Shown here: positions 3,812-44,780 of the stretch, piece after piece
How the letters are laid out: the number at the start of each line of letters is the position of its first letter
Position numbering within the stretch: the first letter of the stretch is position 1
Source of the DNA: Escherichia coli
GTDB lineage: Bacteria; Pseudomonadota; Gammaproteobacteria; Enterobacterales; Enterobacteriaceae
Length of the DNA stretch: 64,000 nt
Strand: one strand, 5' to 3'
NCBI RefSeq assembly: GCF_051903065.1
Contig: NZ_CP178438.1
The notes under the pieces: generated by a model
What the model was told of the DNA's origin: nothing
The model's database searches: none
Seen by the model: the letters and a program-made list of their open reading frames with translations, nothing else
Program-made: the position numbers and the translations under genes

Positions 3812-3826
3812 GGTAATGACTCCAAC

Positions 3827-11539: not shown

Positions 11540-13391
<1,852 letters not shown>

Positions 13392-15997: not shown

Positions 15998-17500
15998 TTA
16001 CCTTTTTCTCCCCCCCAGCAAACTCCCCAACATTCCACGCACAATCTGATTCGTCACCTGGCGGGCGGCGCTTTTGGCCATTGTTCGCACCACACCATCT
16101 TTCTTCCCGCCGCGTGGTCCGGTAGTGCCAAACAAAATATCCTTCAATCCACCAAGAATGCCGTCATCCACCGCCACCTCTTTCCCTTTCACGGCAGGAT
16201 TATTTTGCTGCTCGGTGCTTGCCTGTACGCCTTTTTGCAACATCTCATAGGCGGATTCCCGGTCCACGTCATCCTCGTACTTGCCATACACCGGAGAGTG
16301 ATTAATCAAGCCATTACGCTCATCTTCCGTCACCGGTCCCATCCGCGAACAAGGCGCAATCACCATCGCCCGTTCCACCACAGAAGGACTTCCTTTTGCA
16401 TCGAGAAACGAGATTAACGCCTCGCCGGTCCCCAGTTCCTGGATTGCCTTTTCGGTATCAAATGCAGGGTTGGGGCGCATGGTTTGCGCCGCAGCTTTTA
16501 CCGCTTTCTGATCTTTGGGCGTAAAAGCCCGCAAAGCGTGCTGAACGCGATTACCGAGCTGGCCGAGCACATTATCCGGAATATCAGACGGGTTTTGCGA
16601 AACGAACCAGACGCCCACGCCTTTTGAGCGAATAAGCCTTATCACCTGCTCAATCTTATCCAGCAGTACCTGCGGGGCATCGTTAAACAGCAGATGTGCT
16701 TCGTCGAAGAAAAACACCAGTTTTGGTTTCTCCAGATCGCCCGCTTCCGGCAATTGTTCATATAACTCTGAAAGCATCCACAGCAGGCTGGCGGCGTACA
16801 GTTTTGGCATCTGATAAAGCTTCTCGGCGCTGAGGATATTGATAACGCCTTTACCGTTGGCATCGGTGCGCATCCAGTCTTTGATATCCAGCATCGGCTC
16901 ACCAAAGAAGTGTGCTGCGCCTTGCTGTTCCAGCGACAACAGCCCGCGCTGGATGGCACCAACCGATGCGCTACTGATATTTCCGTACTGATTCTGGAAA
17001 GATTTGGCGTTATCGCCGATGTACTGGGTAATCGCCCGCAAATCTTTAAAGTCGAGCAGTAACAGCCCCTGATCGTCAGCAATGCGGAAGATGATATTCA
17101 GCACGCCAGATTGCACATCGTTGAGATTCAACAGCCGCGCCAGCAACAGCGGCCCCAGGTCTGAAACCGTCGCCCGCACCGGATGGCCTTTCTCGCCAAA
17201 GATATCCCACACCACCACCGGATTGGCATGCGGTTGCCAGTCATTGACGCCGATATTTTTAAGCCTTGCGAGCAGTTTTTCCGATGCCGTTCCTGCCTGC
17301 GCGATGCCGGTCAGATCGCCTTTCACATCGGCCATAAACACCGGAACACCGATTTCCGATAGAGACTCCGCCAGTTTTTGCAGCGTGACAGTTTTACCCG
17401 TCCCCGTTGCGCCAGTAATCAGCCCGTGACGGTTAGCCATTCCCGGCAGTAAAAATAGTTCTGTGTCCGGCGTGCGGGCAATTAACAGGGGTTCGCTCAT
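15998..17500 (-). CDS. yjgR: DUF853 (HerA/FtsK-like) P-loop ATPase
   Basis: Walker A GATGTGKT; start [12 protein letters not shown] at 17498-17500 with GAGGAAA RBS (track ORF extends to 17548). Confidence 0.88.
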
Positions 17501-17629
17501 GAGATTTCCTCCAGTTTCCTGCCTGGAGTATAGGCAACGGCTGCGCACTCTTCACCGCTAAATTCAGCAGATTGCGAGACGCCTTCCAAAGAGATTTAAG
17601 TGCCGGGCGACAGGCACCCGGCAAAGGGA

Positions 17630-18649
17630 TCAGAAGTCGGCTTTCAGGACCACTCGGTAGCGCGCTTTACCATCGCGCACATGCTTGATGGCGTCGTTAA
17701 TTTTCGACATCGGGAACAGTTCGGTAGTCGGCGCAACCTTGCTGCGGGCGGCAAAGCGCATCAGCTTACGCAACTCATAAGGCGTGCCGGTAGCAGAACC
17801 AGAGACGCTGCGGTCGCCCGCAATTAACGTAAAGGCCGGAACAGACAGCGGCGTGAGGACCGCACCGACCGTATGGAAATTACCGCCATAGGTCAGCGCC
17901 TCAAAATAGGGCTGCCAGTCGAGGCTGACGTTGACGGTGTTGATAATGAGATCAAACTGCCCCGCCAGTGCTTTCAGTGCCTGTGGATCGCGGCTATTCA
18001 CCACTTTATCGGCACCCATCGCCAGCACTTCCTGCTCTTTCGCCGGATTAGAACTAAAGGCCGTCACCTCGCATCCCATTGCGTGCAGAAGTTTTATAGC
18101 GATATGCCCCAGCCCGCCAATACCAATTACCCCAACGCGGCTGGTAGCAGTGATATGGTGCATCAACAGTGGTTTAAAGACCGTGATACCGCCGCACAAC
18201 AGCGGCCCGGCGGACTCGATATCAATATTTTCTGGCAGTGGAATCACCCATTGCCAGTCCGCACGCAACTTCTCGGCAAAGCCACCGCGATTCATAATCG
18301 TCGGCACCGCACCTTGCTCGCAGTTGATCTGATTACCGCTAATACAGGCGTCGCAGTGACCACAGCTACGCGCCGTCCAGCCAATCCCGACACGCTGACC
18401 GACCTGCAAACCTTTATCCTGCGCGGCGCTCCCGAGTGCCACCACGCGACCAATCACCTCATGCCCGGCAACCAGCGGATATTGTGAAAATCCCCATTCG
18501 TTATCGATCATCGACAGATCGGAATGGCAGATCCCGCAGTAATCCACCTGCACTTCAACATCTTGTGGCTTCAGTTCACCGGGATCGTACTCATAAACTT
18601 CCAGTTCGCCGCCTGCTTCTTTTGCGGCATAGCTTTTTATCATCGACAT
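17630..18649 (-). CDS. ahr: NADPH-dependent zinc alcohol/aldehyde reductase
   Basis: MDR zinc motif GHEVIGRV and cofactor motif GIGGLGH; start [14 protein letters not shown] at 18649. Confidence 0.9.
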
Positions 18650-18844
18650 TTTTTGGTCCTTCTCTGGTGTTGTCTGGGAAGTGTAGAGCATGGCAGGGCG
18701 GGGTGCCTGGAGTGTGACAAAGGTTACACATCGCTGTATGCAATGCTGAAAATTTCAGCACTTAGCAAAGTGGGTGCAAGCTGGCGCTTGCATGGTGGCG
18801 TGCGACAGGTATAATCCACAACGTTTTCCGCATACCTCTTCAGT

Positions 18845-18929
18845 GCCGAAGTGGCGAAATCGGTAGACGCAGTTGATTCAAAATCAACCGTAGAAATACG
18901 TGCCGGTTCGAGTCCGGCCTTCGGCACCA
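18845..18929 (+). tRNA. leuX: tRNA-Leu(CAA)
   Basis: GCCGAAGTGGCGAAATCGGTAGACGCAGTTGATTCAAAATCAACC...GGTTCGAGTCCGGCCTTCGGCACCA, 85 nt with long variable arm and encoded CCA. Confidence 0.97.
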
Positions 18930-18942
18930 AAAGTATGTAAAT

Positions 18943-18967
18943 AGACCTCAACTGAGGTCTTTTTTTA
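18943..18967 (+). terminator. Rho-independent terminator after leuX
   Basis: AGACCTCAACTGAGGTCT hairpin followed by 7 T. Confidence 0.65.
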
Positions 18968-19115
18968 TGCCTGAAATCCAGTGTTTATCTACCTTTCCCG
19001 CTATATTAACTCTCTCAAGGTCAACCGATATCAACGTACATCTACCAACATATGTTGGTACAGATGATGGTATTTCCGGTTCGATAATGCTTGTACCAAC
19101 AGGGAGGGAATACGC

Positions 19116-20381
19116 ATGGCATTAACAGATATCAAAGTCAGAGCAGCCAAGCCAACGGATAAGCAATATAAGCTGACTGATGGTGGCGGTATGCATCTGC
19201 TTGTCCATCCAAATGGTTCTAAGTACTGGCGTTTGCAGTACCGTTATGAGGGAAAGCAAAAAATGCTGGCACTTGGGGTTTATCCTGAAATCACACTAGC
19301 GGATGCCAGAGTACGTCGTGACGAGGCGCGTAAGCTGCTTGCGAATGGCGTCGATCCGGGAGACAAAAAGAAAAATGATAAGGTTGAACAGAGTAAAGCA
19401 CGAACCTTTAAAGAAGTCGCGATTGAGTGGCATGGCACCAATAAAAAGTGGTCTGAAGATCACGCCCATCGTGTGCTAAAAAGTCTGGAAGATAATCTTT
19501 TTGCAGCGCTTGGTGAACGTAATATCGCTGAGTTAAAAACTCGAGATTTATTAGCACCCATTAAGGCCGTAGAAATGTCTGGACGTCTTGAAGTGGCCGC
19601 TCGTCTTCAGCAGCGCACTACAGCCATCATGCGCTATGCAGTGCAAAGTGGGTTAATTGATTATAACCCGGCACAAGAGATGGCTGGGGCGGTTGCTTCC
19701 TGTAATCGACAACATCGTCCCGCGCTTGAATTAAAGCGCATCCCTGAGTTGCTTACAAAAATAGATAGCTATACTGGTAGGCCGCTAACCCGATGGGCGA
19801 CAGAACTCTCTTTGCTGATCTTTATTCGGTCCAGTGAGCTGCGTTTTGCTCGTTGGTCAGAGATCGATTTCGAAGCGTCTATATGGACTATCCCACCGGA
19901 GCGGGAGCCTATTCCTGGAGTGAAACATTCCCATAGAGGCTCAAAAATGCGTACAACGCATCTAGTGCCTCTTTCAACGCAAGCTCTTGCAATTTTAAAG
20001 CAGATAAAACAGTTTTGTGGGGCCCATGACTTGATATTTATTGGTGATCACGATTCGCACAAACCCATGAGTGAGAATACGGTAAATAGTGCGTTACGGG
20101 TCATGGGGTATGATACAAAAGTAGAGGTTTGTGGTCATGGCTTTCGAACAATGGCCTGTAGTTCATTGGTCGAATCAGGTTTGTGGTCTCGTGATGCTGT
20201 TGAACGTCAGATGAGCCACATGGAGCGAAATTCAGTGAGGGCCGCGTATATCCATAAAGCAGAGCATCTGGAAGAACGCCGCTTGATGCTACAATGGTGG
20301 GCCGATTTTCTGGATGCAAACAGAGAAAAATTTATCAGTCCATTTGAATATGCAAAGATTAATAATCCATTAAAACAGTAA
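19116..20381 (+). CDS. int: P4-type tyrosine integrase
   Basis: 421-aa ORF next to tRNA; C-terminal catalytic region HGFRTMACSSL...RAAYIH. Confidence 0.9.
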   Translation: MALTDIKVRAAKPTDKQYKLTDGGGMHLLVHPNGSKYWRLQYRYEGKQKMLALGVYPEITLADARVRRDEARKLLANGVDPGDKKKNDKVEQSKARTFKEVAIEWHGTNKKWSEDHAHRVLKSLEDNLFAALGERNIAELKTRDLLAPIKAVEMSGRLEVAARLQQRTTAIMRYAVQSGLIDYNPAQEMAGAVASCNRQHRPALELKRIPELLTKIDSYTGRPLTRWATELSLLIFIRSSELRFARWSEIDFEASIWTIPPEREPIPGVKHSHRGSKMRTTHLVPLSTQALAILKQIKQFCGAHDLIFIGDHDSHKPMSENTVNSALRVMGYDTKVEVCGHGFRTMACSSLVESGLWSRDAVERQMSHMERNSVRAAYIHKAEHLEERRLMLQWWADFLDANREKFISPFEYAKINNPLKQ

Positions 20382-20704: not shown

Positions 20705-22204
20705 TTACCTGTGGTCCGGAAGAATAAGTGGCTGCGGTTTCAGACTGTCTGCCGGCACATTTTTCTCTCCGTTAAAAACCATAACGGGTTCATTATCTTC
20801 GTCTGTCAGCGGATTGAATGGCGGTATATTTTCGGTACGAATACCGGTCAGCCACTGAAAAATGCCTGCGAAATTACGGGCACTGATTTTCCTGCTGACG
20901 GACTGATGAGACGTGATGTCACTGGCGGTAATAATCAGGGGAACGCTGTAGCCCCCCTGCACATGACCATCATGATGAACAGGATTAGCACTGTCGCTGA
21001 CCGACAGCCCATGGTCAGAAAAGTAAAGCATTGCAAAGTGACGGGAATGCCGGCGAAGGATACCATCAAGCTGACCGAGAAAGTTATCCAGTTTACTGAT
21101 GCTGGCGAGGTAACAGGCAATCTTTCGGGGATACTGCTCCAGGTAATAATTCGGCCAGGAGTTAAGTCGGTCACACGGATTCGGATGAGAGCCAATCATG
21201 TGCAGGAAAATCACCTTCGGCGAGGATTTATCCGCCAGCGCACGTTCTGTTTCCTGTAACAACAACATGTCATCCGTTTTACGGGAAGCGAAGCTGCCTT
21301 TCTTGAGGAAAACGGTATGCTCCGCATCAGAAGCAATAACAGAGATGCGTGTGTCATGCTCTCCCAGTTTTCCCTGATTGGATATCCACCATGTGCTGTA
21401 TCCTGCTTTTGCTGCCAGCGCCACCACGTTGTTGCCGGAGTCAGGGTTCTGCTCATAGTCATAAATCAGTGTCCGGCTCAGGGAAGGTACGGTACTGGCT
21501 GCTGTCGATGTATAGCCGTCAATAAATAAACCGGGAGCAGTATTCAGCCACGGCGTGGTTGGCACGGGATAGCCATATACCGACATATAATCCCTGCGCA
21601 CACTCTCACCAGTAACGATAACAATCGTGTCATACAACGGCACACCCGGCAGGATTTTCCAGTTATCAGCCCCGTGCTGACTCAGTTGTTTATAACGCTG
21701 CATTTCACGCAATGTGTCAGTTGTCCCCACAACAGTTCCTTTAACCATCCGCAACGGCCAGCTGTTTACAGAGCATAATACGAATAGCAGCAGTGCCAGC
21801 CAGTTACGGTGACCGCGGTGGTGTGTCCGCCAGAAAATCACCATGAATACCAGAATCGCGGCACTGACCAGAAAATGATAAACAGGAATCATCCCGGTAA
21901 ACTCTGCAGCCTCATCAGCCGTGGTCTGCAGCAACGCGACAATAAAACTGTTGTTGATTTTACCGTACGTCATACCCGCAGGCGCATACAGTGCACAACA
22001 GAACAGAAATAACAGCGCTGTAATGGATGTGAGGGTATTTCTGTGTGCAAGGAGAAGAAGGAGAAACAGAAGCAGCACATTTCCTGTGGCATTCTTCTCA
22101 GTGTATCCGCATGCAATTGTGGTTATTGCAGAAACAACAAAAAAGAATAAAAACAATAAAATCCGGGGTGTGTTTCCCGGACAAAACAGTTTTCTGATAT
22201 TCAT
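20705..22204 (-). CDS. Membrane-anchored sulfatase-family protein (phosphoethanolamine-transferase-like)
   Basis: N-terminal multi-TM segment then soluble domain with metal-binding-type motifs (TGESVRRD, HMIGSHPNP); family call from memory of architecture only. Confidence 0.55.
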   Translation of the reverse strand: MNIRKLFCPGNTPRILLFLFFFVVSAITTIACGYTEKNATGNVLLLFLLLLLAHRNTLTSITALLFLFCCALYAPAGMTYGKINNSFIVALLQTTADEAAEFTGMIPVYHFLVSAAILVFMVIFWRTHHRGHRNWLALLLFVLCSVNSWPLRMVKGTVVGTTDTLREMQRYKQLSQHGADNWKILPGVPLYDTIVIVTGESVRRDYMSVYGYPVPTTPWLNTAPGLFIDGYTSTAASTVPSLSRTLIYDYEQNPDSGNNVVALAAKAGYSTWWISNQGKLGEHDTRISVIASDAEHTVFLKKGSFASRKTDDMLLLQETERALADKSSPKVIFLHMIGSHPNPCDRLNSWPNYYLEQYPRKIACYLASISKLDNFLGQLDGILRRHSRHFAMLYFSDHGLSVSDSANPVHHDGHVQGGYSVPLIITASDITSHQSVSRKISARNFAGIFQWLTGIRTENIPPFNPLTDEDNEPVMVFNGEKNVPADSLKPQPLILPDHR

Positions 22205-22363
22205 CGGAGTATATCGACAACATTATGATGAAGAGAACAGGATAATAAAAATCAGAAATTATCTGTAAAACAGATAACAGACAACCCTGCAGTATAATTA
22301 CTGCAGGGTGTTTCCTTTTAATTACAGAAGATAAGTAATTATTATCTTTCAGGAGCAGTTTCG

Positions 22364-23104
22364 TCAGAAGTTATAAGTCACACCAAGCATGATGTCATGA
22401 CTTTTAACATCAACCTCTGATTTATATTTATCGCCCCACTCATCCTTGTAACTCACACTGCTGTCACCTGCATCAATATAGCGATAGCTGAGGTCAAGAG
22501 CGATATCCGGGGTTACGTCATAACGGACACCAGCCCCAAGGCTCCATGCAAAGTTGTCAGCAGAGTCTGAGTGTGACAACGACTCACGCCCACTGTACCC
22601 GTACCCATAATCCCAGGTACTGATACCAGTTGTTTTCTGATGAATTCTGGCGTAACCAATCCCTGCGGATACCCATGGTGTGAATGCACTGTCGTTCCGG
22701 AAGTCATAGTACGTATTCAGCATCAGAGTGTTGACTGACACTTCATTCTTCAGGTCATCACGCCAGTAACCACCTGACCAGCTGTCTTTATCTACGTTAT
22801 ACTTCGAATCAGCTTTTCCACGCGCGTAAAACTCCAGTTCTGTACGAACCGGAATACTGAACTGCGGATAAAAATCATAACCGGCCGCAATACCGCCACT
22901 GAATACCGTATCATGGTCATCGCCGCCTTTATACTTTGACGTTTCTTCCTCATCTCCTGACAGGAAACGCTGGTCTGAAAGTGACACCACAGAGGCACCG
23001 GCTTTACCGGTCAGATAAAAACCGCTTTTACCTTCCTCAGCACCTGCATTTGCTGCAAATACACAGGCTGCGGCCACCACTGAAACAGCAAAAACCTTTT
23101 TCAT
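22364..23104 (-). CDS. Small outer-membrane beta-barrel protein
   Basis: Signal peptide MKKVFAVSVVAAACVFAANA, alternating amphipathic strands, C-terminal GVTYNF with terminal Phe. Confidence 0.65.
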   Translation of the reverse strand: MKKVFAVSVVAAACVFAANAGAEEGKSGFYLTGKAGASVVSLSDQRFLSGDEEETSKYKGGDDHDTVFSGGIAAGYDFYPQFSIPVRTELEFYARGKADSKYNVDKDSWSGGYWRDDLKNEVSVNTLMLNTYYDFRNDSAFTPWVSAGIGYARIHQKTTGISTWDYGYGYSGRESLSHSDSADNFAWSLGAGVRYDVTPDIALDLSYRYIDAGDSSVSYKDEWGDKYKSEVDVKSHDIMLGVTYNF

Positions 23105-23455: not shown

Positions 23456-24511
23456 GGCTTTGTTGAATAAATCGAACTTTTGCTGAGTTGAAGGATCAGA
23501 TCACGCATCCTCCCGACAACACAGACCATTCCGTGGCAAAGCAAAAGTTCAGAATCACCAACTGGTCCACCTACAACAAAGCTCTCATCAACCGTGGCTC
23601 CCTCACTTTCTGGCTGGATGATGAAGCGATTCAGGCCTGGTATGAGTCGGCAACGCCTTCATCACGAGGAAGGCCCCAGCGCTATTCTGATCTCGCCATC
23701 ACCACCGTTCTGGTGATTAAACGCGTATTCCGGCTGACCCTGCGGGCTGCGCAGGGTTTTATTGATTCCATTTTTGCCCTGATGAACGTTCCGTTGCGCT
23801 GCCCGGATTACACCAGTGTCAGTAAGCGGGCAAAGTCGGTTAATGTCAGTTTCAAAACGTCCACCCGGGGTGAAATCGCACACCTGGTGATTGATTCCAC
23901 CGGGCTGAAGGTCTTTGGTGAAGGCGAATGGAAAGTCAGAAAGCACGGCAAAGAGCGCCGTCGTATCTGGCGAAAGTTGCATCTTGCTGTTGACAGCAAC
24001 ACACATGAAGTTGTCTGTGCAGACCTGTCGCTGAATAACGTCACGGACTCAGAAGCCTTCCCGGGCCTTATCCGGCAGACTCACAGAAAAATCAGGGCAG
24101 CCGCGGCAGACGGGGCTTACGATACCCGGCTCTGTCACGATGAACTGCGCCGCAAAAAAATCAGCGCGCTTATTCCTCCCCGAAAAGGAGCAGGTTACTG
24201 GCCCGGTGAGTACGCAGACCGCAACCGTGCCGTTGCTAATCAGCGGCTGAGCGGAAGCAATGCACGGTGGAAATGGACAACGGAATATAACCGTCGCTCG
24301 ATAGCGGAAACGGCAATGTACAGAATGAAGCAGTTGTTGGGAGATTCACTGACGCTGCGTGACTACGATGGTCAGGTAGCGGAAGCTATGGCCATGGTGC
24401 GTGCGTTGAACAGGATGACAAAGGCTGGGATGCCAGAAAGCGTGCGTATTGCCTGAAAATCCAGCCAGCTACAGGGTCGTTCGCACGAAATCTTATTTAT
24501 TCAACAAAGCC
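23456..24511 (+). mobile_element. IS903-like element (IS5 family)
   Basis: Terminal inverted repeats GGCTTTGTTGAATAAATC (23456) and GATTTATTCAACAAAGCC-like (to 24511); no matching flanking duplication. Confidence 0.88.
23533..24456 (+). CDS. IS903-family transposase
   Basis: VAKQKFRITNWSTYNKALINRGSLTFWLDDEAIQAWY... matches IS903/IS102 transposase as recalled; probable GTG start at 23533. Confidence 0.88.
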   Translation: MAKQKFRITNWSTYNKALINRGSLTFWLDDEAIQAWYESATPSSRGRPQRYSDLAITTVLVIKRVFRLTLRAAQGFIDSIFALMNVPLRCPDYTSVSKRAKSVNVSFKTSTRGEIAHLVIDSTGLKVFGEGEWKVRKHGKERRRIWRKLHLAVDSNTHEVVCADLSLNNVTDSEAFPGLIRQTHRKIRAAAADGAYDTRLCHDELRRKKISALIPPRKGAGYWPGEYADRNRAVANQRLSGSNARWKWTTEYNRRSIAETAMYRMKQLLGDSLTLRDYDGQVAEAMAMVRALNRMTKAGMPESVRIA

Positions 24512-25624: not shown

Positions 25625-26644
25625 ATGAATAACGAACAGATGCTTATCAAATGCAAAGATCCCCGTAAATGTCGGTTTTATGCTGAATATCTGAATCACA
25701 AATACCCCAATGAATTCCCTCAGTTTGCGCCTGACAACCCACAAAACTGTATCAGAAATGTTAATGCGTTTTTAAAAGAAAAGTATTGTAATACTTCAAA
25801 CAATTCTTTTGGTGTTTTTGGTTCGACTGCAGAAGAAGCTCTCAGCAAAGAAATTAATGAACTTGAAATTATTGCAGGGCAGGCAATACTGCCTGAAGAG
25901 AGTTTTCTCTGGTTGAAAACTGACGAACTTGCGACTTTCTTTACCTGGACTACTATTTATCTGTCGAAGGAAGACCATACAAATTTCCCGGAAATAAACC
26001 ATAATTCATCAGGGATAAAAAACGGAATTGAAGTCAGAAAAAGACGAACAGTTACCGATGAAACGTTAAATACTTACAAAAAAAGTAACCTTCCGGATAA
26101 TCCATCATCCCATAACGAACGAATAAAAGTAATCATTTTATATTTTGATTCCTGTCATTCTTTAATTAATAAAAATGCAAAAAGCATATACCTCGAGGAA
26201 CTCAGGCAGACGTGGCTTAAAAATAAAAGCGCTTGTCAAAAGTTTAAGTGGCTCCTTCCTGACGATGATGAAATGTGTCAGTGGTTCTGGACAAGACTGA
26301 AACAAAAACAGGATGAAACACATCCGGTACATAACCCGGTGACCCGGTGGTTCATACCATCTTCAACGAAAGAATATTATCTTGCCTCTCTCGTCGCCTT
26401 TGCTTTATGGAAAGAGGCACCTGATACCATTGAACTGTTCAGAACACGCATAAATCATGCCTGGCATCAAAAAAAACAAAAAGACAAATATCGGAATGAT
26501 GGTAAAAAGGCTATTAATATACATATAAGAAGCAATGCGAAAGAAATGCTTGATGAACTCAGAACTGTTTACGGTCTGAGAACAGGAGAGTTTTTTGAAA
26601 TGCTGATTACAGAAAAATATCTTGAACACAAGCGAAGGAAGTAA
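25625..26644 (+). CDS. Hypothetical protein, AT-rich, lysine-rich C-terminus
   Basis: 339-aa ORF preceded by GAGAGG RBS-like sequence; no recognisable motif. Confidence 0.5.
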   Translation: MNNEQMLIKCKDPRKCRFYAEYLNHKYPNEFPQFAPDNPQNCIRNVNAFLKEKYCNTSNNSFGVFGSTAEEALSKEINELEIIAGQAILPEESFLWLKTDELATFFTWTTIYLSKEDHTNFPEINHNSSGIKNGIEVRKRRTVTDETLNTYKKSNLPDNPSSHNERIKVIILYFDSCHSLINKNAKSIYLEELRQTWLKNKSACQKFKWLLPDDDEMCQWFWTRLKQKQDETHPVHNPVTRWFIPSSTKEYYLASLVAFALWKEAPDTIELFRTRINHAWHQKKQKDKYRNDGKKAINIHIRSNAKEMLDELRTVYGLRTGEFFEMLITEKYLEHKRRK

Positions 26645-26753
26645 TTCATTACCTGTTACATTCTAAATAATCTCAGACAGATATTATCTCCGTGAATCCC
26701 CCGCCACCTTTCCGGTGCGCGGGGTTTTGTCTTTTTTCACCGGGAATACATGT

Positions 26754-27581
26754 ATGAATCCGTCTGATGCCATTGAGGCAATTGAAAAACCGCTCTCCTC
26801 CCTGCCTTACTCACTTTCCCGTCACATCCTGGAACATCTGCGCAAACTCACCAGCCACGAACCCGTGATTGGCATTATGGGGAAAAGCGGGGCCGGTAAA
26901 TCCTCACTCTGTAATGCACTGTTTCAGGGGGAGGTCACCCCGGTCAGTGATGTTCACGCCGGCACCCGGGAAGTGCAGCGCTTCCGTCTGAGTGGCCATG
27001 GTCACAGCATGGTTATCACTGACCTGCCCGGGGTGGGCGAGAGCCGTGACAGGGATGCAGAGTATGAAGCCCTGTACCGTAACATTCTGCCTGAACTTGA
27101 CCTGGTACTGTGGCTGATTAAAGCCGATGACCGTGCCTTGTCTGTGGATGAGTATTTCTGGCGACACATTCTGCACCGGGGACATCAGCAGGTGCTGTTT
27201 GTGGTGACGCAGGCCGATAAAACGGAGCCCTGCCATGAATGGGATATGGCCGGTATTCAGCCTTCTCCCGCACAGGCACAGAACATTCGCGAAAAAACGG
27301 AGGCGGTATTCCGTCTGTTCCGGCCCGTACATCCGGTTGTGGCCGTATCGGCTCGCACCGGCTGGGAACTGGATACGCTGGTCAGTGCGCTCATGACAGC
27401 GCTTCCCGACCATGCCGCCAGTCCCCTGATGACCCGCCTGCAGGACGAGCTGCGCACGGAATCTGTCCGCGCTCAGGCCCGTGAACAGTTTACCGGTGCG
27501 GTGGACCGGATATTTGACACGGCGGAGAGCGTCTGTATTGCCTCTGTTGCCCGCGCGGTATGGAACTGGATTTTCTTCTGA
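26754..27581 (+). CDS. YeeP/YkfA/YfjP-family GTPase
   Basis: P-loop GIMGKSGAGKSSL, DLPG switch motif, TQADK; likely start MNPSDAIEAIE at 26754. Confidence 0.8.
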   Translation: MNPSDAIEAIEKPLSSLPYSLSRHILEHLRKLTSHEPVIGIMGKSGAGKSSLCNALFQGEVTPVSDVHAGTREVQRFRLSGHGHSMVITDLPGVGESRDRDAEYEALYRNILPELDLVLWLIKADDRALSVDEYFWRHILHRGHQQVLFVVTQADKTEPCHEWDMAGIQPSPAQAQNIREKTEAVFRLFRPVHPVVAVSARTGWELDTLVSALMTALPDHAASPLMTRLQDELRTESVRAQAREQFTGAVDRIFDTAESVCIASVARAVWNWIFF

Positions 27582-27780
27582 ACCCGGTGGTGATGCACCA
27601 GACTCTTGTTACAGATTTTTAACTCCATGAAAACACAATGCAAACGCAGCCATACCCGGGTTGTCCCCTTGTGTTGTGTTTTCCAGATTAATAGAATGCA
27701 TCGATCGTTATAAACGATCGTTTGTGGTAAATGACCTCCTCCGTGGTTGTCATGAAAATGCGTCTCAGGAAGGTTAAATA

Positions 27781-30165
27781 ATGCACGAAAAGAACATCGC
27801 CCTGCTTTGTGATGAAGCCGACCGACTTTTGCAACTGAACATTAATCTGCTCCGGCAAATGGTTGATGAACCGGATGTGTTATCTGACAGTAAGAACGAA
27901 AACAGACTGCTTTTCGATAAACAGAAAGCACTGAAAAGAATTGAGGAGCTGGAGGGCGAACAAATCAAAACCGCCCGCAGGGAGATGGTGCTGGCTGTTG
28001 TCGGCACGATGAAAGCAGGTAAATCAACTACCATCAACGCCATTGTGGGGCAGGAAATTCTGCCTAACCGTAACCGCCCCATGACCTCTGTACCGACGCT
28101 CATCCGCCACGTTCCCGGAAAAACTGAGCCGGTCCTCCATCTGGAACATATTCAGCCCGTCCGCAATTTATTAAGCACACTGCAACAAAAACTCGACACC
28201 CCGGCAGGACAGCAAGTCGCACAGACCCTGCAGCAAACCGGGGATACCTGCGAACTGCTGGATATTCTGGCAAATGATGGCTGGCTCAAAAATGAATACC
28301 ACGGGGAGGAGGAAATCTTTACCGGACTGGCATCGTTAAACGATCTGGTTCGCCTTGCTGCGGCAATGGGGAGTGAGTTTCCTTTTGATGAATACGCAGA
28401 AGTGCAGAAACTGCCGGTGATCGACGTGGAATTCAGCCATCTGGTGGGGATGGATGCATGCCAGGGAACACTCACACTGCTGGATACCCCCGGCCCTAAT
28501 GAGGCCGGACAACCGCAGATGGAAGTGATGATGCGGGATCAACTGCAGAAAGCCTCTGCGGTGCTGGCGGTGATGGATTACACCCAGATGAACTCAAAAG
28601 CGGATGAAGACGTCCGTAAAGAGCTTAATGCCATTGCTGACGTATCAGCCGGCCGCCTGTTTGTGCTGGTCAATAAATTTGATGAGAAAGACCGCAATGG
28701 CGATGGGGCAGATGCCGTACGCCAGAAAGTTCCGGCAATGCTGAACAGTGATGTGCTGCCCGCCTCCCGCGTTTATCCAGGCTCATCACGTCAGGCGTAC
28801 CTGGCTAACCGTGCGCTTCATGAGTTACGGAAAAACGGAACCCTTCCTGTTGATGAAGCCTGGGTCGATGATTTTGTCAGGGAAGCCTTCGGTCGCATGA
28901 AAAAAGAATACGTCTGTAAAGACAGTGAAATGGCAACCGAAGGGGCGACAGACCTGTGGGAAGGTTCACTTATCGATCAACTGATAACGGAAGTCATACA
29001 GAGCTCCCATTCCAGAGCGGCGGCACTGGCGGTTGATTCTGCCGCCGCAAAACTGATGCAGAATGCGGAAAATGTCAGCGAATATCTGTCATTACGCCAT
29101 CAGGGGCTACAGCAAAGCATTCAGTCACTGCAGGCGCATATCTCCAGCCTGCTGGCGGATATCCGGGAAATCGCGGACTGTCAGGAGCAGGTGACCGCAG
29201 ATGTCAGAATGGCTATGGAGGAGATCGATACTAAAACCCGGGAATTACTGACGGGGGTCTGCACCTCACTGGAAGAGGAGCTGAATGACTATTTCAGAAG
29301 CGGTAAACGCAAAGAACAGCAAATGCTGGAGGAAGAAAATTCAGCGCAGCCCCGGGAGAGAAACGCATTCGCTTTCTTTCACGATATTTTCGGAACCGGA
29401 AATCAGCATGACAGGATGCGGGACTTTGATCCGGACAGCCCCGAAATAAAATTCAGTGATCGCAGGGAAGCCCTTGAACTGATGACGCAAATCGAATCGA
29501 CCGTGACCAGCCTGCACCGTGAGGCTGAAGCACAGTTCCGTCCTGAACTGGAAAAAATCGTCAGGGGTATTGAAACAGGTTTTCGTGGTACGGCCCTGTA
29601 CGCCACAGAAAATATTGCCGGACGCATCAATGCCCGTCTGGAGGATGAAGGTTTCACTGTAAAAATCAGTTTTCCGGCAGTCAGCCAGTTACAGACCCGG
29701 CTCGCAGTAAAAACAAATCTGAGCGCGCTTATGGAGGAAAGAACGGAGACCGTCACTCGTCGCTGTCGACAGGATGGTGTCTGGGGTACGCTTTGTCGAT
29801 GGGCAAACACCAGTGACTGGGGCTGGAAAGAGTACAGTGTGGATGTGAGCCGCAGCGTGATCAATATCAACAAGGTCAGAGAGGAAGTGATGTCACTGAC
29901 CCGGGCATATTTCGGGGAGCTGCAGGCATCCATTGAGCAGGATATTAACCAGCCCGTCCGCCAGGAAATCGATGCCTTTTTCTGCGCATTCAGGGAGAAA
30001 GTTGAACAACTGCGTAACACGCTGATTCAGAGCTCTGAAGATCGTAAACGCGATCAGCAGGCGCAGGAACGGCTTACCGGGCGACTTCAGGCATTAAATG
30101 AAAGGGTTCCTGAGCTCATTACTGACAGTAAGGCGCTGAGGGAAGAGCTGGAGACAATGCTGTGA
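27781..30165 (+). CDS. Dynamin-like GTPase, CrfC/YjdA paralog
   Basis: 794 aa; G1 motif VVGTMKAGKSTTINAIVG, LDTPGPNE, VLVNKFDEKD; long coiled-coil C-terminal half; RBS AGGAAGG upstream. Confidence 0.85.
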   Translation: MHEKNIALLCDEADRLLQLNINLLRQMVDEPDVLSDSKNENRLLFDKQKALKRIEELEGEQIKTARREMVLAVVGTMKAGKSTTINAIVGQEILPNRNRPMTSVPTLIRHVPGKTEPVLHLEHIQPVRNLLSTLQQKLDTPAGQQVAQTLQQTGDTCELLDILANDGWLKNEYHGEEEIFTGLASLNDLVRLAAAMGSEFPFDEYAEVQKLPVIDVEFSHLVGMDACQGTLTLLDTPGPNEAGQPQMEVMMRDQLQKASAVLAVMDYTQMNSKADEDVRKELNAIADVSAGRLFVLVNKFDEKDRNGDGADAVRQKVPAMLNSDVLPASRVYPGSSRQAYLANRALHELRKNGTLPVDEAWVDDFVREAFGRMKKEYVCKDSEMATEGATDLWEGSLIDQLITEVIQSSHSRAAALAVDSAAAKLMQNAENVSEYLSLRHQGLQQSIQSLQAHISSLLADIREIADCQEQVTADVRMAMEEIDTKTRELLTGVCTSLEEELNDYFRSGKRKEQQMLEEENSAQPRERNAFAFFHDIFGTGNQHDRMRDFDPDSPEIKFSDRREALELMTQIESTVTSLHREAEAQFRPELEKIVRGIETGFRGTALYATENIAGRINARLEDEGFTVKISFPAVSQLQTRLAVKTNLSALMEERTETVTRRCRQDGVWGTLCRWANTSDWGWKEYSVDVSRSVININKVREEVMSLTRAYFGELQASIEQDINQPVRQEIDAFFCAFREKVEQLRNTLIQSSEDRKRDQQAQERLTGRLQALNERVPELITDSKALREELETML

Positions 30166-31067
30166 CTTCACCATTTATTCAACAAATTGCTGATAACCGG
30201 GTATGTCAGGTACTCACCTGTCTTCCTGAAAAATTTGTGGTTGATTTCGCAAACGGAATCGATGTTGCACAGGAGCATATCCGCACGGCCGGAGAGCGCA
30301 CGTTCTTCCGGCGTTTAAAAGAGGGGATGACCGGCGAAGGCGCTGCACGGCAGAATGCCATCAATGCTTCGCTTGCACAGGGCGTTGAGGCGTCCCTGCG
30401 CTGGCTGACGGAGCTGACAACGTCACTTGCCACCACAAACTACGCGATTACCCGGGTAAACGACAGGGTCAGTTCACTGGTCAGTGATACTGCCAGGCTG
30501 GCGCATTATTCGGCTGACACGCGGGAGCAGTTACTCACCCTGGCCGATCAGGTTCACCAGAAACTGAATCATCTTGAAGAAAAACTCCACCGTGTTGACC
30601 AGGTTCAGCGGGCGCAGTTACATCTTGAGCAGATATTCTCATGGTGGAGCGCCGGGCGATATGCGTCATTTTCCCCTGCCGGACGTTGTTATGTGGCACT
30701 TGAAGAGCTTCGCTGGGGCGCGTTTGGTGATGTGATACGCCAGGGCGAAACAGGCCAGGTTAACCAGCTACTGGATATTCTCAGACATAAAGCATTAACG
30801 CAGATGGCACAGGAGAGTGGCGGTAGTGCAACCGTGCGTCTGAACACTCTGGACTGGCTTGGTGGTCAGGGCCGGGAGCAGGCAGATAACGAGTGGCATG
30901 ACGCGATTAACTGGCTGGGGGACTGGTGCAGTGAAGAGCAGCATCCGGTGATCTGGTCAACCACGCAGGCTGCAGAACACTTACCGGTTCGCATGCCTCG
31001 CCTCTGCTCTGCAGAACGCCTCTCTGAAAGTATGGTCGATGAAATATTTCAGAAGGGGGCAGCATGA
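30162..31067 (+). CDS. YjcZ-like protein (partner of the dynamin-like GTPase)
   Basis: GTG start overlapping upstream stop; N-terminus resembles K-12 YjcZ as recalled (LPEKFVVDFANGIDV.QEHIRTAGERTFFRRLK). Confidence 0.7.
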   Translation: MTSPFIQQIADNRVCQVLTCLPEKFVVDFANGIDVAQEHIRTAGERTFFRRLKEGMTGEGAARQNAINASLAQGVEASLRWLTELTTSLATTNYAITRVNDRVSSLVSDTARLAHYSADTREQLLTLADQVHQKLNHLEEKLHRVDQVQRAQLHLEQIFSWWSAGRYASFSPAGRCYVALEELRWGAFGDVIRQGETGQVNQLLDILRHKALTQMAQESGGSATVRLNTLDWLGGQGREQADNEWHDAINWLGDWCSEEQHPVIWSTTQAAEHLPVRMPRLCSAERLSESMVDEIFQKGAA

Positions 31068-32134
31068 GTACAGAAATGAAAACGGGGCTGGTGCTGTCCG
31101 GCGGCGGGGCGGTGGGCGCTTATCAGGCAGGTGTGGTTAAGGCACTGGCAGAGTGTGGCACACAGATCAGCATGGTTTCAGGGGCCAGCATTGGCGCATT
31201 CAATGGTGCCATTATCGCGGCCTCTCCCGATCTGTCAGAAGCAGCCGCACGCCTGGAGGCGCTCTGGAAGCATCTGGGGAATAATCAGGTGCTGTCGGTA
31301 AACCGATCGGTTTACTTTTCATTGCTGAAAAAAATGGTTCAGGCCATGAACCTCTGCCAGATCCCCGGACGTGCAGGAGCACTGCTTACGACACTTCTTC
31401 GCCATATATCGATAATCAACGGCTTCGACAATCCGATGGCTCAGCCGCTGTTGTCAGATGAGCCTCTGACAGCGCTGTTGGATCATTATCTTGATACTGA
31501 TGCTCTGGCAGACGGGCTACCGCTGTATGTGTCGCTGTACCCCACAGAAGGGGGCATGCAGGATATTATTGACTGCATTCGTGCTGAACTGGGTGCCGGA
31601 ACCACGAAAAACGCCGTTTTTCAGCATATCCAGAGCCTGCCCCGCGGACAGCAGAAAGAGGCTCTGCTTGCGTCAGCCGCGCTGCCCCTGCTGTTCCGTC
31701 CCCGTGAGGTTCAGGGGACAATGTTCGGTGATGGTGGTATGGGAGGATGGCGAAATATGCAGGGAAATACCCCTGTGACGCCTCTGGTCGATGCCGGATG
31801 CAATATGGTGATTGTGACGCATCTGAGTGACGGTTCTTTATGGGATCGCCAGGCTTTTCCGGACACCACAATCCTTGAGATCCGTCCCCGGAAAAGGCTG
31901 AAATATGCAGGTGATGGTGGCAACAGCGGCGGTCTGCTCAGTTTCACGTTGGCACATACCGACGCCTGGCGTCAGCAGGGCTATGAAGACACGATGCTGA
32001 CGATGGAGCATATCCGGAAACCGCTGGCAGCACGTCAGGTACTGTCCCGGTCAGAAACGGTGTTGCAGAAAAGTCTGGAGATAACGGAAGAGGCAGATTT
32101 GGCACTGAGAAACGCGATGGCCCGGATTAAATAA
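31064..32134 (+). CDS. Patatin-like phospholipase
   Basis: ATGA start/stop overlap with upstream gene; Gly-rich loop LSGGGAVGAYQAG, nucleophile elbow GASIG (GxSxG), DGG motif in FGDGGMGG. Confidence 0.85.
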   Translation: MSTEMKTGLVLSGGGAVGAYQAGVVKALAECGTQISMVSGASIGAFNGAIIAASPDLSEAAARLEALWKHLGNNQVLSVNRSVYFSLLKKMVQAMNLCQIPGRAGALLTTLLRHISIINGFDNPMAQPLLSDEPLTALLDHYLDTDALADGLPLYVSLYPTEGGMQDIIDCIRAELGAGTTKNAVFQHIQSLPRGQQKEALLASAALPLLFRPREVQGTMFGDGGMGGWRNMQGNTPVTPLVDAGCNMVIVTHLSDGSLWDRQAFPDTTILEIRPRKRLKYAGDGGNSGGLLSFTLAHTDAWRQQGYEDTMLTMEHIRKPLAARQVLSRSETVLQKSLEITEEADLALRNAMARIK

Positions 32135-32464
32135 AGACGCCCCAAAGAAACGCCACCGCCTGTGGTGGTGTTTTTCCTGTCTGGTGTTATTGAAAATATT
32201 TTCAGACATATATTACCTGAGAGAAAGTTTTACCCCTCATCTGTCAATTCACTCACTGGAAATTTAATTATGAAATTACCTGTAAAGTTATTAATGAGCC
32301 TTATATCTCTGGTAAGCGTTATTGCACGTGCCGGGGAATATAAAAATTACAGCCGGGATGAAATAAAATACTGGCGATATACATCATACAAGGGGTGGAA
32401 ACTTCCGGAAGGTTTCACTGATGAGAAATTTTCCAGCGCCATTTACAACGGAAGAATATTTACA

Positions 32465-32953
32465 ATGAAACGTTTACATACCCTTATGTTATTTCTGGCG
32501 GTTCTGTTCACGGGCTTTAACTTTAACGCAGAAGCGGCTACCGTAAAACAAGCTCTTAGTTGTAACCCAGAAGCCTGGGCTGAACAACCTGGAGCGTGTC
32601 CATCAACGTACGAGTTGTACGAAGGTGACGCTACCTACAAAGCCGCTATCGACAAAGCATTAAAACCGGTCGGACTGAGCGGCATGTTCGGTAAAGGCGG
32701 CTATATGGATGGCCCTGGTGGAGGTATCACGCCAGTAAACATTAACGGTACAGTCTGGTTCCAGGGCGACGGTTGCAAAGCCAATACCTGCGGCTGGGAC
32801 TTTATCGTAACACTCTATAACCCAAAAACCCATGAAGTTGTTGGCTACCGTTACTTTGGTTTAGATGACCCGGCCTACCTGGTTTGGTTCGGTGAAATTG
32901 GCGTGCATGAATTCGCGTATCTGGTGAAAAACTACGTAGCTGCGGTTAACTAA
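32465..32953 (+). CDS. Secreted protein, possibly Ivy-like (lysozyme-inhibitor fold); alternative upstream in-frame start at 32270
   Basis: Signal peptide MKRLHTLMLFLAVLFTGFNFNAEA; GDGCKANTCGWDF loop resembling the Ivy CKPHDCG loop; second signal-peptide-like segment in frame upstream. Confidence 0.4.
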   Translation: MKRLHTLMLFLAVLFTGFNFNAEAATVKQALSCNPEAWAEQPGACPSTYELYEGDATYKAAIDKALKPVGLSGMFGKGGYMDGPGGGITPVNINGTVWFQGDGCKANTCGWDFIVTLYNPKTHEVVGYRYFGLDDPAYLVWFGEIGVHEFAYLVKNYVAAVN

Positions 32954-32968: not shown

Positions 32969-33181
32969 ATGAAAACTTTTATCAAAACTTTACTCGTTGC
33001 TGTAACTATTCTGTTCTCTGTCTTCGCTACTGCGAAACAAGTAAAACTGCCAAATAACATCAAATACGTTAATACTACAGAAGCGTTTTCCTGTACCGAA
33101 ATTGACGGTATGAATTGCCAGACAAAGAATCAGTTCAACTATAAAGATAACAGCTATGTGGTGATGCTGCCAACTTACTGA
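32969..33181 (+). pseudogene. Small secreted-protein gene truncated by IS1 (last 6 codons and stop lie in the IS1 terminal repeat)
   Basis: Signal peptide MKTFIKTLLVAVTILFSVFATA; frame runs into GGTGATGCTGCCAACTTACTGA of IS1. Confidence 0.5.
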
Positions 33182-33214
33182 TTTAGTGTATGATGGTGTT
33201 TTTGAGGTGCTCCA

Positions 33215-33490
33215 GTGGCTTCTGTTTCTATCAGCTGTCCCTCCTGTTCAGCTACTGAAGGCGTGGTGCGTAACGGTAAAAGCACTGCCGGACATCAGCG
33301 CTATCTCTGCTCTCACTGCCGTAAAACATGGCAACTGCAGTTCACTTACACCGCTTCTCAACCCGGTACGCACCAGAAAATCATTGATATGGCCATGAAT
33401 GGCGTTGGATGCCGGGCAACTGCCCGCATTATGGGCGTTGGCCTCAACACGGTTTTACGTCACTTAAAAAACTCAGGCCGCAGTCGGTAA
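33215..33490 (+). CDS. insA: IS1 InsA
   Basis: 91-aa [21 protein letters not shown]... Confidence 0.9.
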
Positions 33491-33912
33491 CCTCGCGCAT
33501 ACAGCTGGGCAGTGACGTCATCGTCTGCGCGGAAATGGACGAACAGTGGGGATACGTCGGGGCTAAATCGCGCCAGCGCTGGCTGTTTTACGCGTATGAC
33601 AGGCTCCGGAAGACGGTTGTTGCGCACGTATTCGGTGAACGCACTATGGCGACGCTGGGGCGTCTTATGAGCCTGCTGTCACCCTTTGACGTGGTGATAT
33701 GGATGACGGATGGCTGGCCGCTGTATGAATCCCGCCTGAAGGGAAAGCTGCACGTAATCAGCAAGCGATATACGCAGCGAATTGAGCGGCATAACCTGAA
33801 TCTGAGGCAGCACCTGGCACGGCTGGGACGGAAGTCGCTGTCGTTCTCAAAATCGGTGGAGCTGCATGACAAAGTCATCGGGCATTATCTGAACATAAAA
33901 CACTATCAATAA
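33409..33912 (+). CDS. insB: IS1 transposase InsB
   Basis: 167-aa [24 protein letters not shown]... Confidence 0.9.

Positions 33913-41223: not shown

Positions 41224-44780
<3,557 letters not shown>

Follow-up and report, generated by a model that had tools for sequence, protein, structure and literature searches.

A Probable 45.2-kb Integrative Island With an Intact P4-Type Integrase at the leuX tRNA Gene of Escherichia coli

The leuX Gene and the Adjacent Integrase Gene

The 64,000-nt stretch of Escherichia coli DNA analyzed here (the window) contains a single tRNA gene, identified by ARAGORN as tRNA-Leu(CAA) at positions 18845-18929 of the plus strand and also matched by the Rfam tRNA model (59 bits). 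This gene is leuX, the name under which the homologous K-12 region, 97.5% identical, is annotated. leuX is a classic island hotspot of E. coli, and phage P4 itself integrates there. The original prediction, made from the window sequence, held that leuX is the insertion point of a large mosaic island and that its 3' end is the attachment core. The identity of the tRNA gene, the core found in its 3' end and the empty-site junctions described below all bear out leuX as the target gene. The attL core is the 25-bp sequence GTTCGAGTCCGGCCTTCGGCACCAA (18906-18930, plus strand), which comprises the leuX 3' end plus one nucleotide. Its assignment is upheld by a perfect repeat in strain H1 and by the annotated attP core of P4, which is identical to the last 20 nt of leuX.

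Directly 3' of leuX, a terminator scan detects a terminator-like hairpin, AGACCTCAACTGAGGTCT followed by T7 (18943-18967, plus strand). In a three-way alignment, the sequence departs from the empty-site flank right after CCAA, and this island-borne hairpin would replace the native downstream sequence of leuX. In COL60J and SMS-3-5, the 52-bp leader past the core also follows the core copy that precedes a second island. No consensus sigma-70 match was detected by a promoter scan of the spacer between leuX and the integrase gene.

The integrase gene, int (19116-20381, plus strand), starts 187 nt past the CCA end of leuX, as originally predicted, and reads away from the tRNA gene on the same strand. 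Its 421 codons are uninterrupted by a stop or a frameshift and the protein is identical to RefSeq WP_001218930.1. Pfam models delineate an N-terminal arm-DNA-binding domain (Arm-DNA-bind_3, residues 3-87), a central core-binding domain (Phage_int_M, 98-192) and a C-terminal catalytic domain (Phage_integrase, 207-383). The protein shares 244 of 410 residues with P4 Int (60%, E ~1e-162), with which it has the same domain set and att core, and the catalytic residues R238, K277, H341, R344, H368, and Y378 are invariant in the alignment. Domain architecture, catalytic residues, similarity to P4 Int, the tRNA core beside int and the arm repeats (see below) together establish a tyrosine integrase of the P4 type, as had been proposed. 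The K-12 copy, intB, is a pseudogene carrying a TAG at codon 19; the present gene is its intact allele.

Boundaries of the Island

Within the window, the leuX 3' end is unique. The 23-mer TTCGAGTCCGGCCTTCGGCACCA occurs once, with 3 mismatches allowed; a search with a 14-mer core and 2 mismatches gave nothing above chance level, and a core variant with a 1-bp deletion is absent. These searches agree with the original prediction, which saw no second copy and placed the distal boundary beyond position 64,000. The boundary would lie only about 100 bp further. In H1, the closest match among complete genomes, which is collinear with positions 16325-64000 at 99.83% identity, a perfect second copy of the 25-bp core is found 45,193 bp downstream of the first. 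Five relatives (H1, SMS-3-5, W5-6, C1, and COL60J) are identical from the last 20 nt of the window on to the core repeat, which starts 99 nt past the last window base in all five, and their sequences diverge directly after it. The final island DNA within the window (63628-64000, plus strand) has this identical continuation. With the right end taken from these relatives, the attR core would be located at about 64099-64123, so that the island would end approximately 100-123 bp beyond the window and measure 45,193 bp.

Among 5,426 complete E. coli genomes, on which all empty-site and distribution counts are based, 222, including E. coli C, join leuX directly to the post-repeat sequence. Both boundaries are therefore exact. 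The empty-site junction occurs in one piece, which shows that some strains carry the island and that its absence from others is precise, and a base-level alignment of the three sites gives attB as the left side of attL, the core and the right side of attR. The same genomes support the claim that all DNA downstream of leuX in the window is accessory, as leuX is joined in them to sequence beyond the window end. In some strains at least, the post-attR sequence, from the AbiJ gene onward, also belongs to the accessory DNA, and PAI-S88-leuX is listed for one of the "empty-site" genomes (PMC7545054). Hence, an empty site means a site without the present island, not a pristine chromosome.

Relative to H1, divergence is 2.2% in the flanking core DNA but 0.055% within the island, and the change occurs at leuX. 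This sharp drop could also be produced by homologous recombination affecting the flank. By analogy with PAI II536, the presence/absence polymorphism with exact ends would fit integration and excision at leuX driven by the integrase.

Candidate Arm-Type Sites

The Int-proximal arm (P', 19043-19101, no strand assigned) contains candidate arm-type Int-binding sites, recognized by a repeat search, by P4 geometry and by co-variation. These are two repeats in tandem with a 12-bp period, TGTTGGTAC (19053-19061) and TGATGGTAT (19065-19073), an inverted repeat, GTACCAACA (19093-19101), and an extra inverted repeat, TACCAACA (19043-19050). Past the window end, the far-side arm probably carries two tandem copies of TGTTGGTAT, at about 64026 and 64038, a pair observed only in the relatives. 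In 65.8 kb, the exact sequence TGTTGGTA occurs five times, always beside one of the two cores and with P4-like spacing, and the candidate repeats match the geometry of the annotated arm repeats of P4. Moreover, in 25 related leaders or elements, the sequence of the tandem-plus-inverted repeats co-varies with the integrase clade. Such co-variation suggests that arm-site specificity differs between clades, with TGTTGGTA used here versus TGCGGGTA and TTGGGGGCA elsewhere. It also defines, by comparison, the arm-type sites of several integrase clades with a common leuX core.

Interior of the Island

The GC content varies from 0.35 to 0.55 in the island, versus 0.51-0.55 in the upstream core DNA (8-19 kb of the window), which indicates a mosaic composition. 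The mobile elements are an IS5, two IS1 copies, an IS110, an IS3 with a group II intron, and IS256 fragments. This varied IS content, and an exact cargo combination found in only one of the 5,426 genomes, agree with the predicted large mosaic island.

Except where other evidence is given, the genes named in this section follow the annotation of H1. The first cargo (20705-23104, minus strand) consists of a gene for a phosphoethanolamine-transferase-family protein (20705-22204), which is intact here but a pseudogene in K-12 (yjgX, 91.6% homology), and of a gene for a 246-aa outer-membrane beta-barrel protein (22364-23104, also from NCBIfam). NCBIfam matches in this cargo are to CptA/EptA, below the family cut-offs, and to an Adr-like adhesin family. 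An IS5-family transposase gene (23488-24456, plus strand), missing in most relatives of the int-proximal region, separates it from a second cargo (25625-32953, plus strand) coding for a hypothetical protein, a GTPase, a 794-aa dynamin-family protein, an RdcB-family protein, a patatin-like phospholipase, and another hypothetical protein. This second module is absent in COL60J, and NCTC9699 has a 100% identical copy at a different locus. The next segment (33159-38143), delimited by BLAST against itself and relatives, has an IS1 copy at either end, the two in inverted orientation to each other (33159-33929 and 37373-38143), and the segment as a whole is inverted in COL60J. It holds two hypothetical genes and a gene for a PDDEXK-like protein (34217-35440), assigned to the PADLOC candidate family PDC-S26 (E = 7e-34). 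When ten cargo proteins were submitted to PADLOC, this protein was matched and the GTPase gave a weak LeoBC match only; there was no match for the dynamin, the RdcB-like protein, the patatin, or the restriction endonuclease. A YadA-like trimeric autotransporter adhesin gene follows (38258-39580, plus strand; NCBIfam YadA_autotrans, below cut-off), and then IS debris (40010-44783) composed of a pseudogene of the IS110 family and an IS3-family element that a group II intron interrupts. The intron spans about 42035-44295 (Rfam Intron_gpII at 44218-44304) with its ltrA ORF at 42691-44214 (annotated start 42706); COL60J has the same IS3 without the intron.

Beyond the alpA module, the middle of the backbone (49155-56710, minus strand) comprises an H-NS-family gene (49931-50371), a restriction endonuclease gene (52128-53006), an inovirus-Gp2/YfjJ-like gene (53334-54065), a hypothetical gene (55580-56710), and the IS256 fragments. 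Its order and orientation are kept in PI12 and COL60J. The distal backbone (56895-63627, plus strand) is of the CP4 type and is 100% identical in many genomes. It encodes a GTPase, an HTH regulator, a hypothetical protein, DUF905, DUF932, antirestriction, JAB/RadC, and DUF987 proteins, a YeeU-family antitoxin (62090-62458), a CbtA-family toxin (62548-62925), and DUF5983 and DUF957 proteins. The interior is a mosaic of IS-bounded cargo and a backbone of about 19 kb (44.9-63.6 kb) that is widely shared. Among the 57 PGAP features of the collinear H1 island, there is no relaxase, oriT, type IV secretion or coupling protein gene.

The alpA Module

The alpA module (44962-48120, minus strand) is made of an ECs1377-family gene (NCBIfam ECs1377_fam), a UCP030791-family gene, a small ORF, an AlpA/Vis-type HTH gene, a hypothetical gene, and a gene for a YagK/YfjJ-domain protein. 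The alpA-like ORF, correctly reported on the strand opposite the integrase, is a genuine gene (46429-46665, minus strand; Pfam Phage_AlpA, E = 2.6e-10). Its product is 36% identical to P4 Vis and is a candidate excisionase. The alpA block is detected in 2,953 of the 5,426 genomes.

The original prediction took the position of alpA, on the opposite strand and far from int, as a sign of nested insertions or of an inversion. This part of it is not supported. The alpA/YfjJ module lies on one strand and the GTPase-to-CbtA module on the other, and their orientation, both internally and relative to the integrase, is unchanged in PI12, where the block sits in a thrW-type island with a different integrase, and in COL60J, where it sits in a leuX island. 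Because the layout is common to both, the orientation of alpA is ancestral to the shared backbone and requires no local event; a local inversion of the alpA block is ruled out by this comparison. Neither an internal att core nor a second integrase fragment (tblastn, E ≤ 10) is present in the island. The 26-kb distance between int and alpA is due to the IS-bounded cargo, 8.6 kb of which is lacking in COL60J.

Interpretation and Alternative Explanations

It is very probable that the locus is a 45.2-kb integrative, non-conjugative island of the P4-integrase/CP4/KpLE2 class, site-specifically inserted in the leuX 3' end. In the proposed mechanism, the catalytic and core-binding domains of Int would bind the core at the 3' terminus of the tRNA gene, while its N-terminal arm domain would bind the TGTTGGTA repeats flanking the attachment site of the island. 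Recombination between the attP of the island and leuX (attB) would then insert the element. leuX would be rebuilt with the copy of the tRNA 3' end brought by the island, followed by the island-borne terminator-like hairpin, and insertion would leave the 25-bp direct repeat at the distal end, about 100 bp past the window.

Whether the island is still mobile bears on the main alternative, a fixed, immobile relic like KpLE2 of K-12, whose distribution would reflect vertical descent and homologous recombination of flanking DNA. The K-12 allele is a pseudogene with no attR within 47 kb, the second islands of W5-6 and COL60J have no terminal attR, the interior is heavily IS-ridden, and the whole island is found in only one other complete genome. 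However, the integrase is intact and has its full set of catalytic residues, alpA is intact, both H1 core copies are perfect, all arm repeats are conserved, and the island is nearly identical in two strains whose adjacent core DNA is clearly diverged. Fixation as a relic thus retains some plausibility but is rather unlikely, and Int and AlpA may still be able to excise the island.

The distant alpA on the opposite strand would be accounted for if at least two integrative elements, nested or in tandem, had later fused into one island, or if the island contained an inverted segment. P4-family tandem arrays do arise at the leuX site, some backbone types are duplicated (two GTPase paralogues with 39% identity, two YfjJ/Gp2-type genes), and the segment between the IS1 copies shows a genuine inversion polymorphism. 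Yet the window has no internal core, full or deleted by 1 bp, and no integrase fragment, and PI12 and COL60J share the orientation of the alpA block relative to the CbtA block and the integrase, so that a composite origin appears quite improbable. The least probable proposal, by far, is that of a P4-like satellite prophage hijacking P2-type helpers, in place of an island with a P4-type integrase. The attB site is that of P4, the integrase and the Vis homologue are related to those of P4, the geometry of the arm sites is P4-like, and W5-6 has a true P4-like leader and integrase in tandem behind the same island. However, only Int and Vis are matched by tblastn out of 13 P4 proteins, the alpha primase, sid, delta, psu, epsilon, the cI region and gop/beta/cII are missing, and no nucleotide similarity to P4 is detected. 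The 45-kb island is also four times as large as P4, and IS elements and genes of the CP4-type backbone fill its interior. With Int and Vis alone in common with P4, the satellite reading is effectively refuted.

Several islands can follow one another at leuX. Core copies belonging to a working tRNA gene read ...CTTCGGCACCA in all five cases, whereas those at junctions before a further integrase lack one G in 10 of 11 cases, a deletion that would break the acceptor stem. In the second islands of W5-6 and COL60J, neither a terminal core nor the chromosomal flank was found within 37-46 kb. Tentatively, and against the odds, leuX could serve as a landing pad on which several P4-family elements, with att cores of two alleles, settle in a set order. 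Possibly, elements with the deleted core are tolerated only where an IntB-type island stands ahead of them and preserves leuX; another possibility is that the IntB-type island mends the tRNA gene after a previously arrived element has damaged it. If the landing pad exists, selection for a functional tRNA would act on how the elements are ordered in the array, and each integrase clade would read its own arm-site "code" next to a common core.

Given that the leuX hotspot and the integrase allele are known, the meaning of the island as an integrative element is mostly limited to correct annotation, for which exact coordinates are now provided. Nevertheless, the intact int, alpA, cores and arm repeats make it a better candidate than KpLE2 for testing whether an IntB-type island is excised. 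It also supplies uncharacterised cargo candidates, namely the dynamin/RdcB/patatin module, the PDC-S26-like PDDEXK protein as a candidate defence gene, and the intact yjgX-type phosphoethanolamine transferase.

Comparison With Known Systems

Phage P4 has the identical 20-bp att core in leuX, and its Int and Vis are 60% and 36% identical to those encoded here. In both elements, two tandem arm repeats stand on one side, and two tandem and one inverted on the int side, but the repeat is TGTTGGTA in the island and TTGGGGGCA in P4. The replication, capsid-size, helper-control, and cos functions of P4 are lacking in the island.

A large island at leuX, a P4-like integrase and flanking direct repeats are also features of PAI II536 of uropathogenic E. 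coli 536, whose integrase was experimentally shown to excise the island and reintegrate it specifically at leuX through a circular intermediate (PMC3202238). At 102 kb, PAI II536 encodes haemolysin, P pili, and Hek along with further virulence factors (PMC7545054), none of which the present island has.

Many leuX islands are fixed and degenerate, KpLE2 of K-12 among them. KpLE2, also annotated as cryptic prophage PR-Y, occupies the same leuX site with the same spacing between leuX and int, 97.5% DNA identity in the integrase gene region and yjgX (phosphoethanolamine-transferase family) as first cargo gene, also on the opposite strand. It differs in the TAG at codon 19 of intB, in a yjgX pseudogene split by an IS2, in an attR that is undetected, and in its cargo (fec, sgc, xylonate genes, and others). 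The present island has an intact int and an intact yjgX homologue, and its bounding repeats are perfect in the closest relative.

The CP4-57, CP4-44, and CP4-6 elements of K-12 likewise combine a P4-type or related integrase at a tRNA or tmRNA gene with an AlpA-type regulator and, on the basis of the H1 annotation and of family knowledge, the same distal backbone of GTPase, DUF932, antirestriction, RadC, DUF987, YeeU-type antitoxin, and CbtA-type toxin genes. The thrW/CP4-6-type island of PI12 carries the same block as the present island. In CP4-57, alpA adjoins intA on the same strand, whereas here it is 26 kb from int on the opposite strand, and the attachment gene differs from those of the CP4 elements. 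The island is an ordinary member of the KpLE2/PAI-leuX/CP4 class, a kind that is already well documented.

The leuX tRNA Gene and Its Integrase

A single tRNA gene, encoding tRNA-Leu(CAA), is present in the 64-kb window (18845-18929, plus strand; ARAGORN, with Rfam in agreement). The yjgR-ahr-tRNA-integrase region is 97.5% identical to the K-12 leuX locus, whose tRNA is the annotated leuX. An integrase ORF of 421 codons (19116-20381) lies on the same strand and begins 187 nt past the CCA end. Its product, identical to RefSeq WP_001218930.1, contains the three domains of arm-binding phage integrases (Pfam Arm-DNA-bind_3, Phage_int_M and Phage_integrase). Among its homologues in phage records, the best characterised is Int of the satellite phage P4; the two proteins agree at 244 of 410 residues, and R238, K277, H341, R344, H368, and Y378 are invariant in their alignment. 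The same gene is intB in K-12, where it has a TAG stop at codon 19. Thus, the window carries an intact allele of a reference-strain pseudogene. The original prediction had described the tRNA, the integrase ORF, the 187-nt spacing and the lack of a second copy of the tRNA end in the window, and ARAGORN, ORF and core searches agree with it in every particular. Moreover, its assignment of the integrase to the P4 type is borne out by the identity with P4 Int and by the domain set, and the ORF is free of the frameshift that it had considered.

Attachment Core and Far Boundary

The 23-nt 3′ end of leuX has no second copy in the window when three mismatches are allowed, and a 14-mer of this end gave only a chance-level match across the window. 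A perfect second copy, in the same orientation, is found just past the corresponding stop point in E. coli GDSC2BY4G, the closest relative, which is collinear with window positions 16325-64000 at 99.83% identity. In this strain, the direct repeat measures 25 bp (GTTCGAGTCCGGCCTTCGGCACCAA). SMS-3-5, W5-6, C1, and COL60J are identical from the last 20 bases of the window to a core copy at +99, and to the right of ...CACCA these four genomes part from one another at once. From these relatives, the attR core would be located at 64099-64123, giving a repeat-to-repeat distance of 45,193 bp. The distal boundary, which had been placed beyond 64,000, is therefore indeed there, by about 100 bp, as seen in relatives rather than in the window's own genome. 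The last 20 nt of leuX match the annotated 20-bp attP core of P4 (GAGTCCGGCCTTCGGCACCA) exactly; therefore, the island uses P4's own chromosomal site.

Arm-Type Repeats and the int Leader

The window plus its extension (65.8 kb) contains five copies of the 8-mer TGTTGGTA, and all five adjoin the two cores. In the stretch separating the attL core from the first codon of int are three of them, at 19043 (minus), 19053 (plus), and 19094 (minus), accompanied by a tandem partner with one mismatch at 19065. The remaining pair, a tandem repeat with a 12-bp period, precedes the attR core by about 50 bp. The annotated arm repeats of P4 have the same layout: two in tandem 54 bp from the core and, on the int side, two in tandem plus one inverted at 113-160 bp. 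In the leaders of 25 related integrases (33-94% identity), two tandem repeats and one inverted copy are found just upstream of int in all 25 cases, with a repeat sequence that varies by integrase clade: TGTTGGTA for the window integrase and its closest relatives, TGCGGGTA for a second, int2-type clade, TGAGTATA for a third clade, TG(C/A)TGGTAA for Asn-tRNA elements and TTGGGGGCA for P4. That the repeat sequence co-varies with the integrase clade is good comparative evidence for Int binding these repeats as its arm-type sites.

A short box, GGTTCGAT(AAT), is located at 19078-19088, with the tandem arm repeats on one side and the inverted one on the other. Most of the P4-family int leaders examined retain it fully or almost fully, although their arm repeats differ. 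Its sequence is similar to the beginning of the tRNA core (GGTTCGAG) and includes a possible -10 hexamer, GATAAT; a simple promoter scan of the leuX-int spacer found no consensus promoter.

Cargo and Backbone

Gene names were taken from the GDSC2BY4G annotation through the collinear alignment and from profile searches. After int comes a gene for a 499-aa protein of the PEtN-transferase family (20705-22204, minus), the intact counterpart of the K-12 pseudogene yjgX; the protein scores far below the NCBIfam cut-offs for the CptA, EptA, EptB, and MCR families. The GDSC2BY4G annotation then gives an outer-membrane protein gene followed by IS5. Four genes at 26715-32134 encode a GTPase, a 794-aa dynamin-family protein, an RdcB-family protein and a patatin-like phospholipase. 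This module travels as a unit: NCTC9699 carries it at another locus with 100% identity, and COL60J lacks it. It may be a defence system; PADLOC gives a weak LeoBC match, to the GTPase only. Further on (33159-38143), two inverted IS1 copies bound 3.4 kb with two hypothetical genes and a PDDEXK gene, whose product matches the PADLOC candidate PDC-S26. A YadA-like adhesin gene follows, and then IS110 and IS3 debris, the IS3-family element being split by a group II intron (42035-44295; ltrA ORF 42691-44214, annotated start 42706; Rfam Intron_gpII match at 44218-44304). The same IS3 is found without the intron in COL60J. The exact 20-kb cargo combination has one match among 5,426 genomes, GDSC2BY4G, and its modules are found separately elsewhere.

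Some side observations can be added. E. coli C has a similar IS3-plus-intron arrangement near leuX, and an isrC sRNA match (Rfam, 41332-41454) lies inside the island's IS3-family element. In the upstream core region, outside the island, there is an IS1 copy at 3812-4579, and two naRNA4 (REP-type) matches and one Ysr276 antisense-RNA match (Rfam, 11629-11802 and 12636-12830) are located near the pepA/holC-side genes.

The remaining ~19 kb form the backbone. Its minus-strand part contains ECs1377-family, UCP030791-family, AlpA-type HTH, YfjJ-type, H-NS, restriction endonuclease, Gp2-type and hypothetical genes, and its plus-strand part GTPase, HTH, DUF905, DUF932, antirestriction, RadC/JAB, DUF987, YeeU antitoxin, CbtA toxin, DUF5983, and DUF957 genes. 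The minus-strand ORF at 46429-46665 encodes an AlpA/Vis homologue, which matches Pfam Phage_AlpA with E = 2.6e-10 and is 36% identical to P4 Vis.

Rearrangement and Probable Acquisition

The distance between alpA and int and their opposite strands had been read as a sign of nested insertion or inversion. The comparisons do not support this reading. A thrW/CP4-6-type island in strain PI12 has the same long block, with the alpA and CbtA parts on opposite strands, in the same orientation relative to its integrase, a different one of 393 aa; the leuX island of COL60J has this opposite-strand block as well, and no second core or integrase fragment was found within the window. The distance arises because cargo intervenes, 8.6 kb of which is missing from COL60J. 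IS-mediated rearrangements are real, but they affect other parts of the island. The IS1-bounded segment is inverted in COL60J. Moreover, when the window is compared with GDSC2BY4G, the polymorphic sites of one IS1 copy have traded places with those of the other, as in a mirror (their positions add up to 71302), and the intervening segment is collinear. This suggests that recombination, or flipping, has taken place repeatedly between the IS1 copies.

Site-specific recombination of the P4 type, the classical route, most likely put the island into leuX. To represent the empty site, the 500 bp that end at leuX CCA-A were joined to the 600 bp following the far repeat in GDSC2BY4G. This predicted junction is uninterrupted, with 100% coverage, in 222 of 5,426 complete E. 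coli genomes, among them E. coli C, S88 and ATCC 11775, the type strain (identity ~98.7-98.8% among the matches listed). At base level, the attB of E. coli C consists of the attL left flank, the 25-bp core and the attR right flank. A published survey counts the S88 DNA after attR, from an AbiJ-domain gene onward, as an integrase-less leuX island (PMC7545054); therefore, "empty" here means empty of this island only. Between the window and GDSC2BY4G, 2.2% of positions differ in the core DNA that precedes leuX (2.6 kb; yjgR, ahr; last difference at 18769), versus 0.055% in the 45-kb island, where the differences comprise an 11-bp indel, 11 sites mirrored between the two IS1 copies and three SNPs. 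From 16325-18769 to 18906-64000, divergence thus switches within ~140 bp of the att core. This change of history at leuX fits a recent lateral acquisition of the island, though homologous recombination replacing the flank would produce an identical pattern.

In GDSC2BY4G (47726-49409, outside the window), the AbiJ gene is closely followed by a copy of ISKpn26, which adjoins a truncated fimH; the fim operon and neighbouring genes are therefore deleted in that strain.

Tandem Arrays and Core Alleles

The far repeat is where further P4-family elements enter, and four relatives have tandem arrays as a result. In COL60J, the integrase of the added element is 76% identical and has arm repeats of its own (TGCGGGTA); in SMS-3-5, the integrase is interrupted; W5-6 has a P4-like leader and integrase, with Hachimoji-type (HamA) defence genes behind them; and C1 has a fourth leader type. 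The core alleles of these arrays are one loose end worth noting. Cores were compared with window positions 18906-18930 at 39213-39236 of COL60J (L005), at ~6603 of SMS-3-5, W5-6, and C1 (L037, L038, and L039) and in IMG/VR L008, L009, L011, L018, L028, and L032. The leuX-derived cores within a working tRNA read ...CTTCGGCACCA in five of five cases, and one G is missing from 10 of 11 junction cores ahead of another integrase, whose left and right flanks are of many kinds. The core is complete in the terminal attR of GDSC2BY4G and in the P4 attP. As a tRNA end, the G-deleted core would break the acceptor stem.

Comparison With Known Elements

The comparisons establish the parts, boundaries and homology of the island, and its identification is highly probable. 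A P4-like satellite phage was rejected: among 13 P4 proteins sought in the island, homologues of Int and Vis only were found, and at the DNA level the island shows no similarity to P4. A conjugative element was also rejected, the annotation of the collinear GDSC2BY4G island showing neither relaxase nor type IV secretion gene. Together, Int and the AlpA/Vis-type directionality factor could reverse the integration, an activity that we infer. The element may or may not still be able to excise, with about equal likelihood. PAI II536 is the precedent: its P4-like integrase carries out excision and reintegration at leuX specifically (PMC3202238). The leuX gene is among the island sites most frequently used in E. 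coli (PMC7545054, PMC11537424), and it is followed by this integrase type in 2,070 of 5,426 genomes (~38%). KpLE2, with a P4 integrase, is found at leuX in K-12, B and Crooks (PMC3032704). The island is thus a known kind of element, correctly described, and the same island is already annotated in RefSeq, in GDSC2BY4G.
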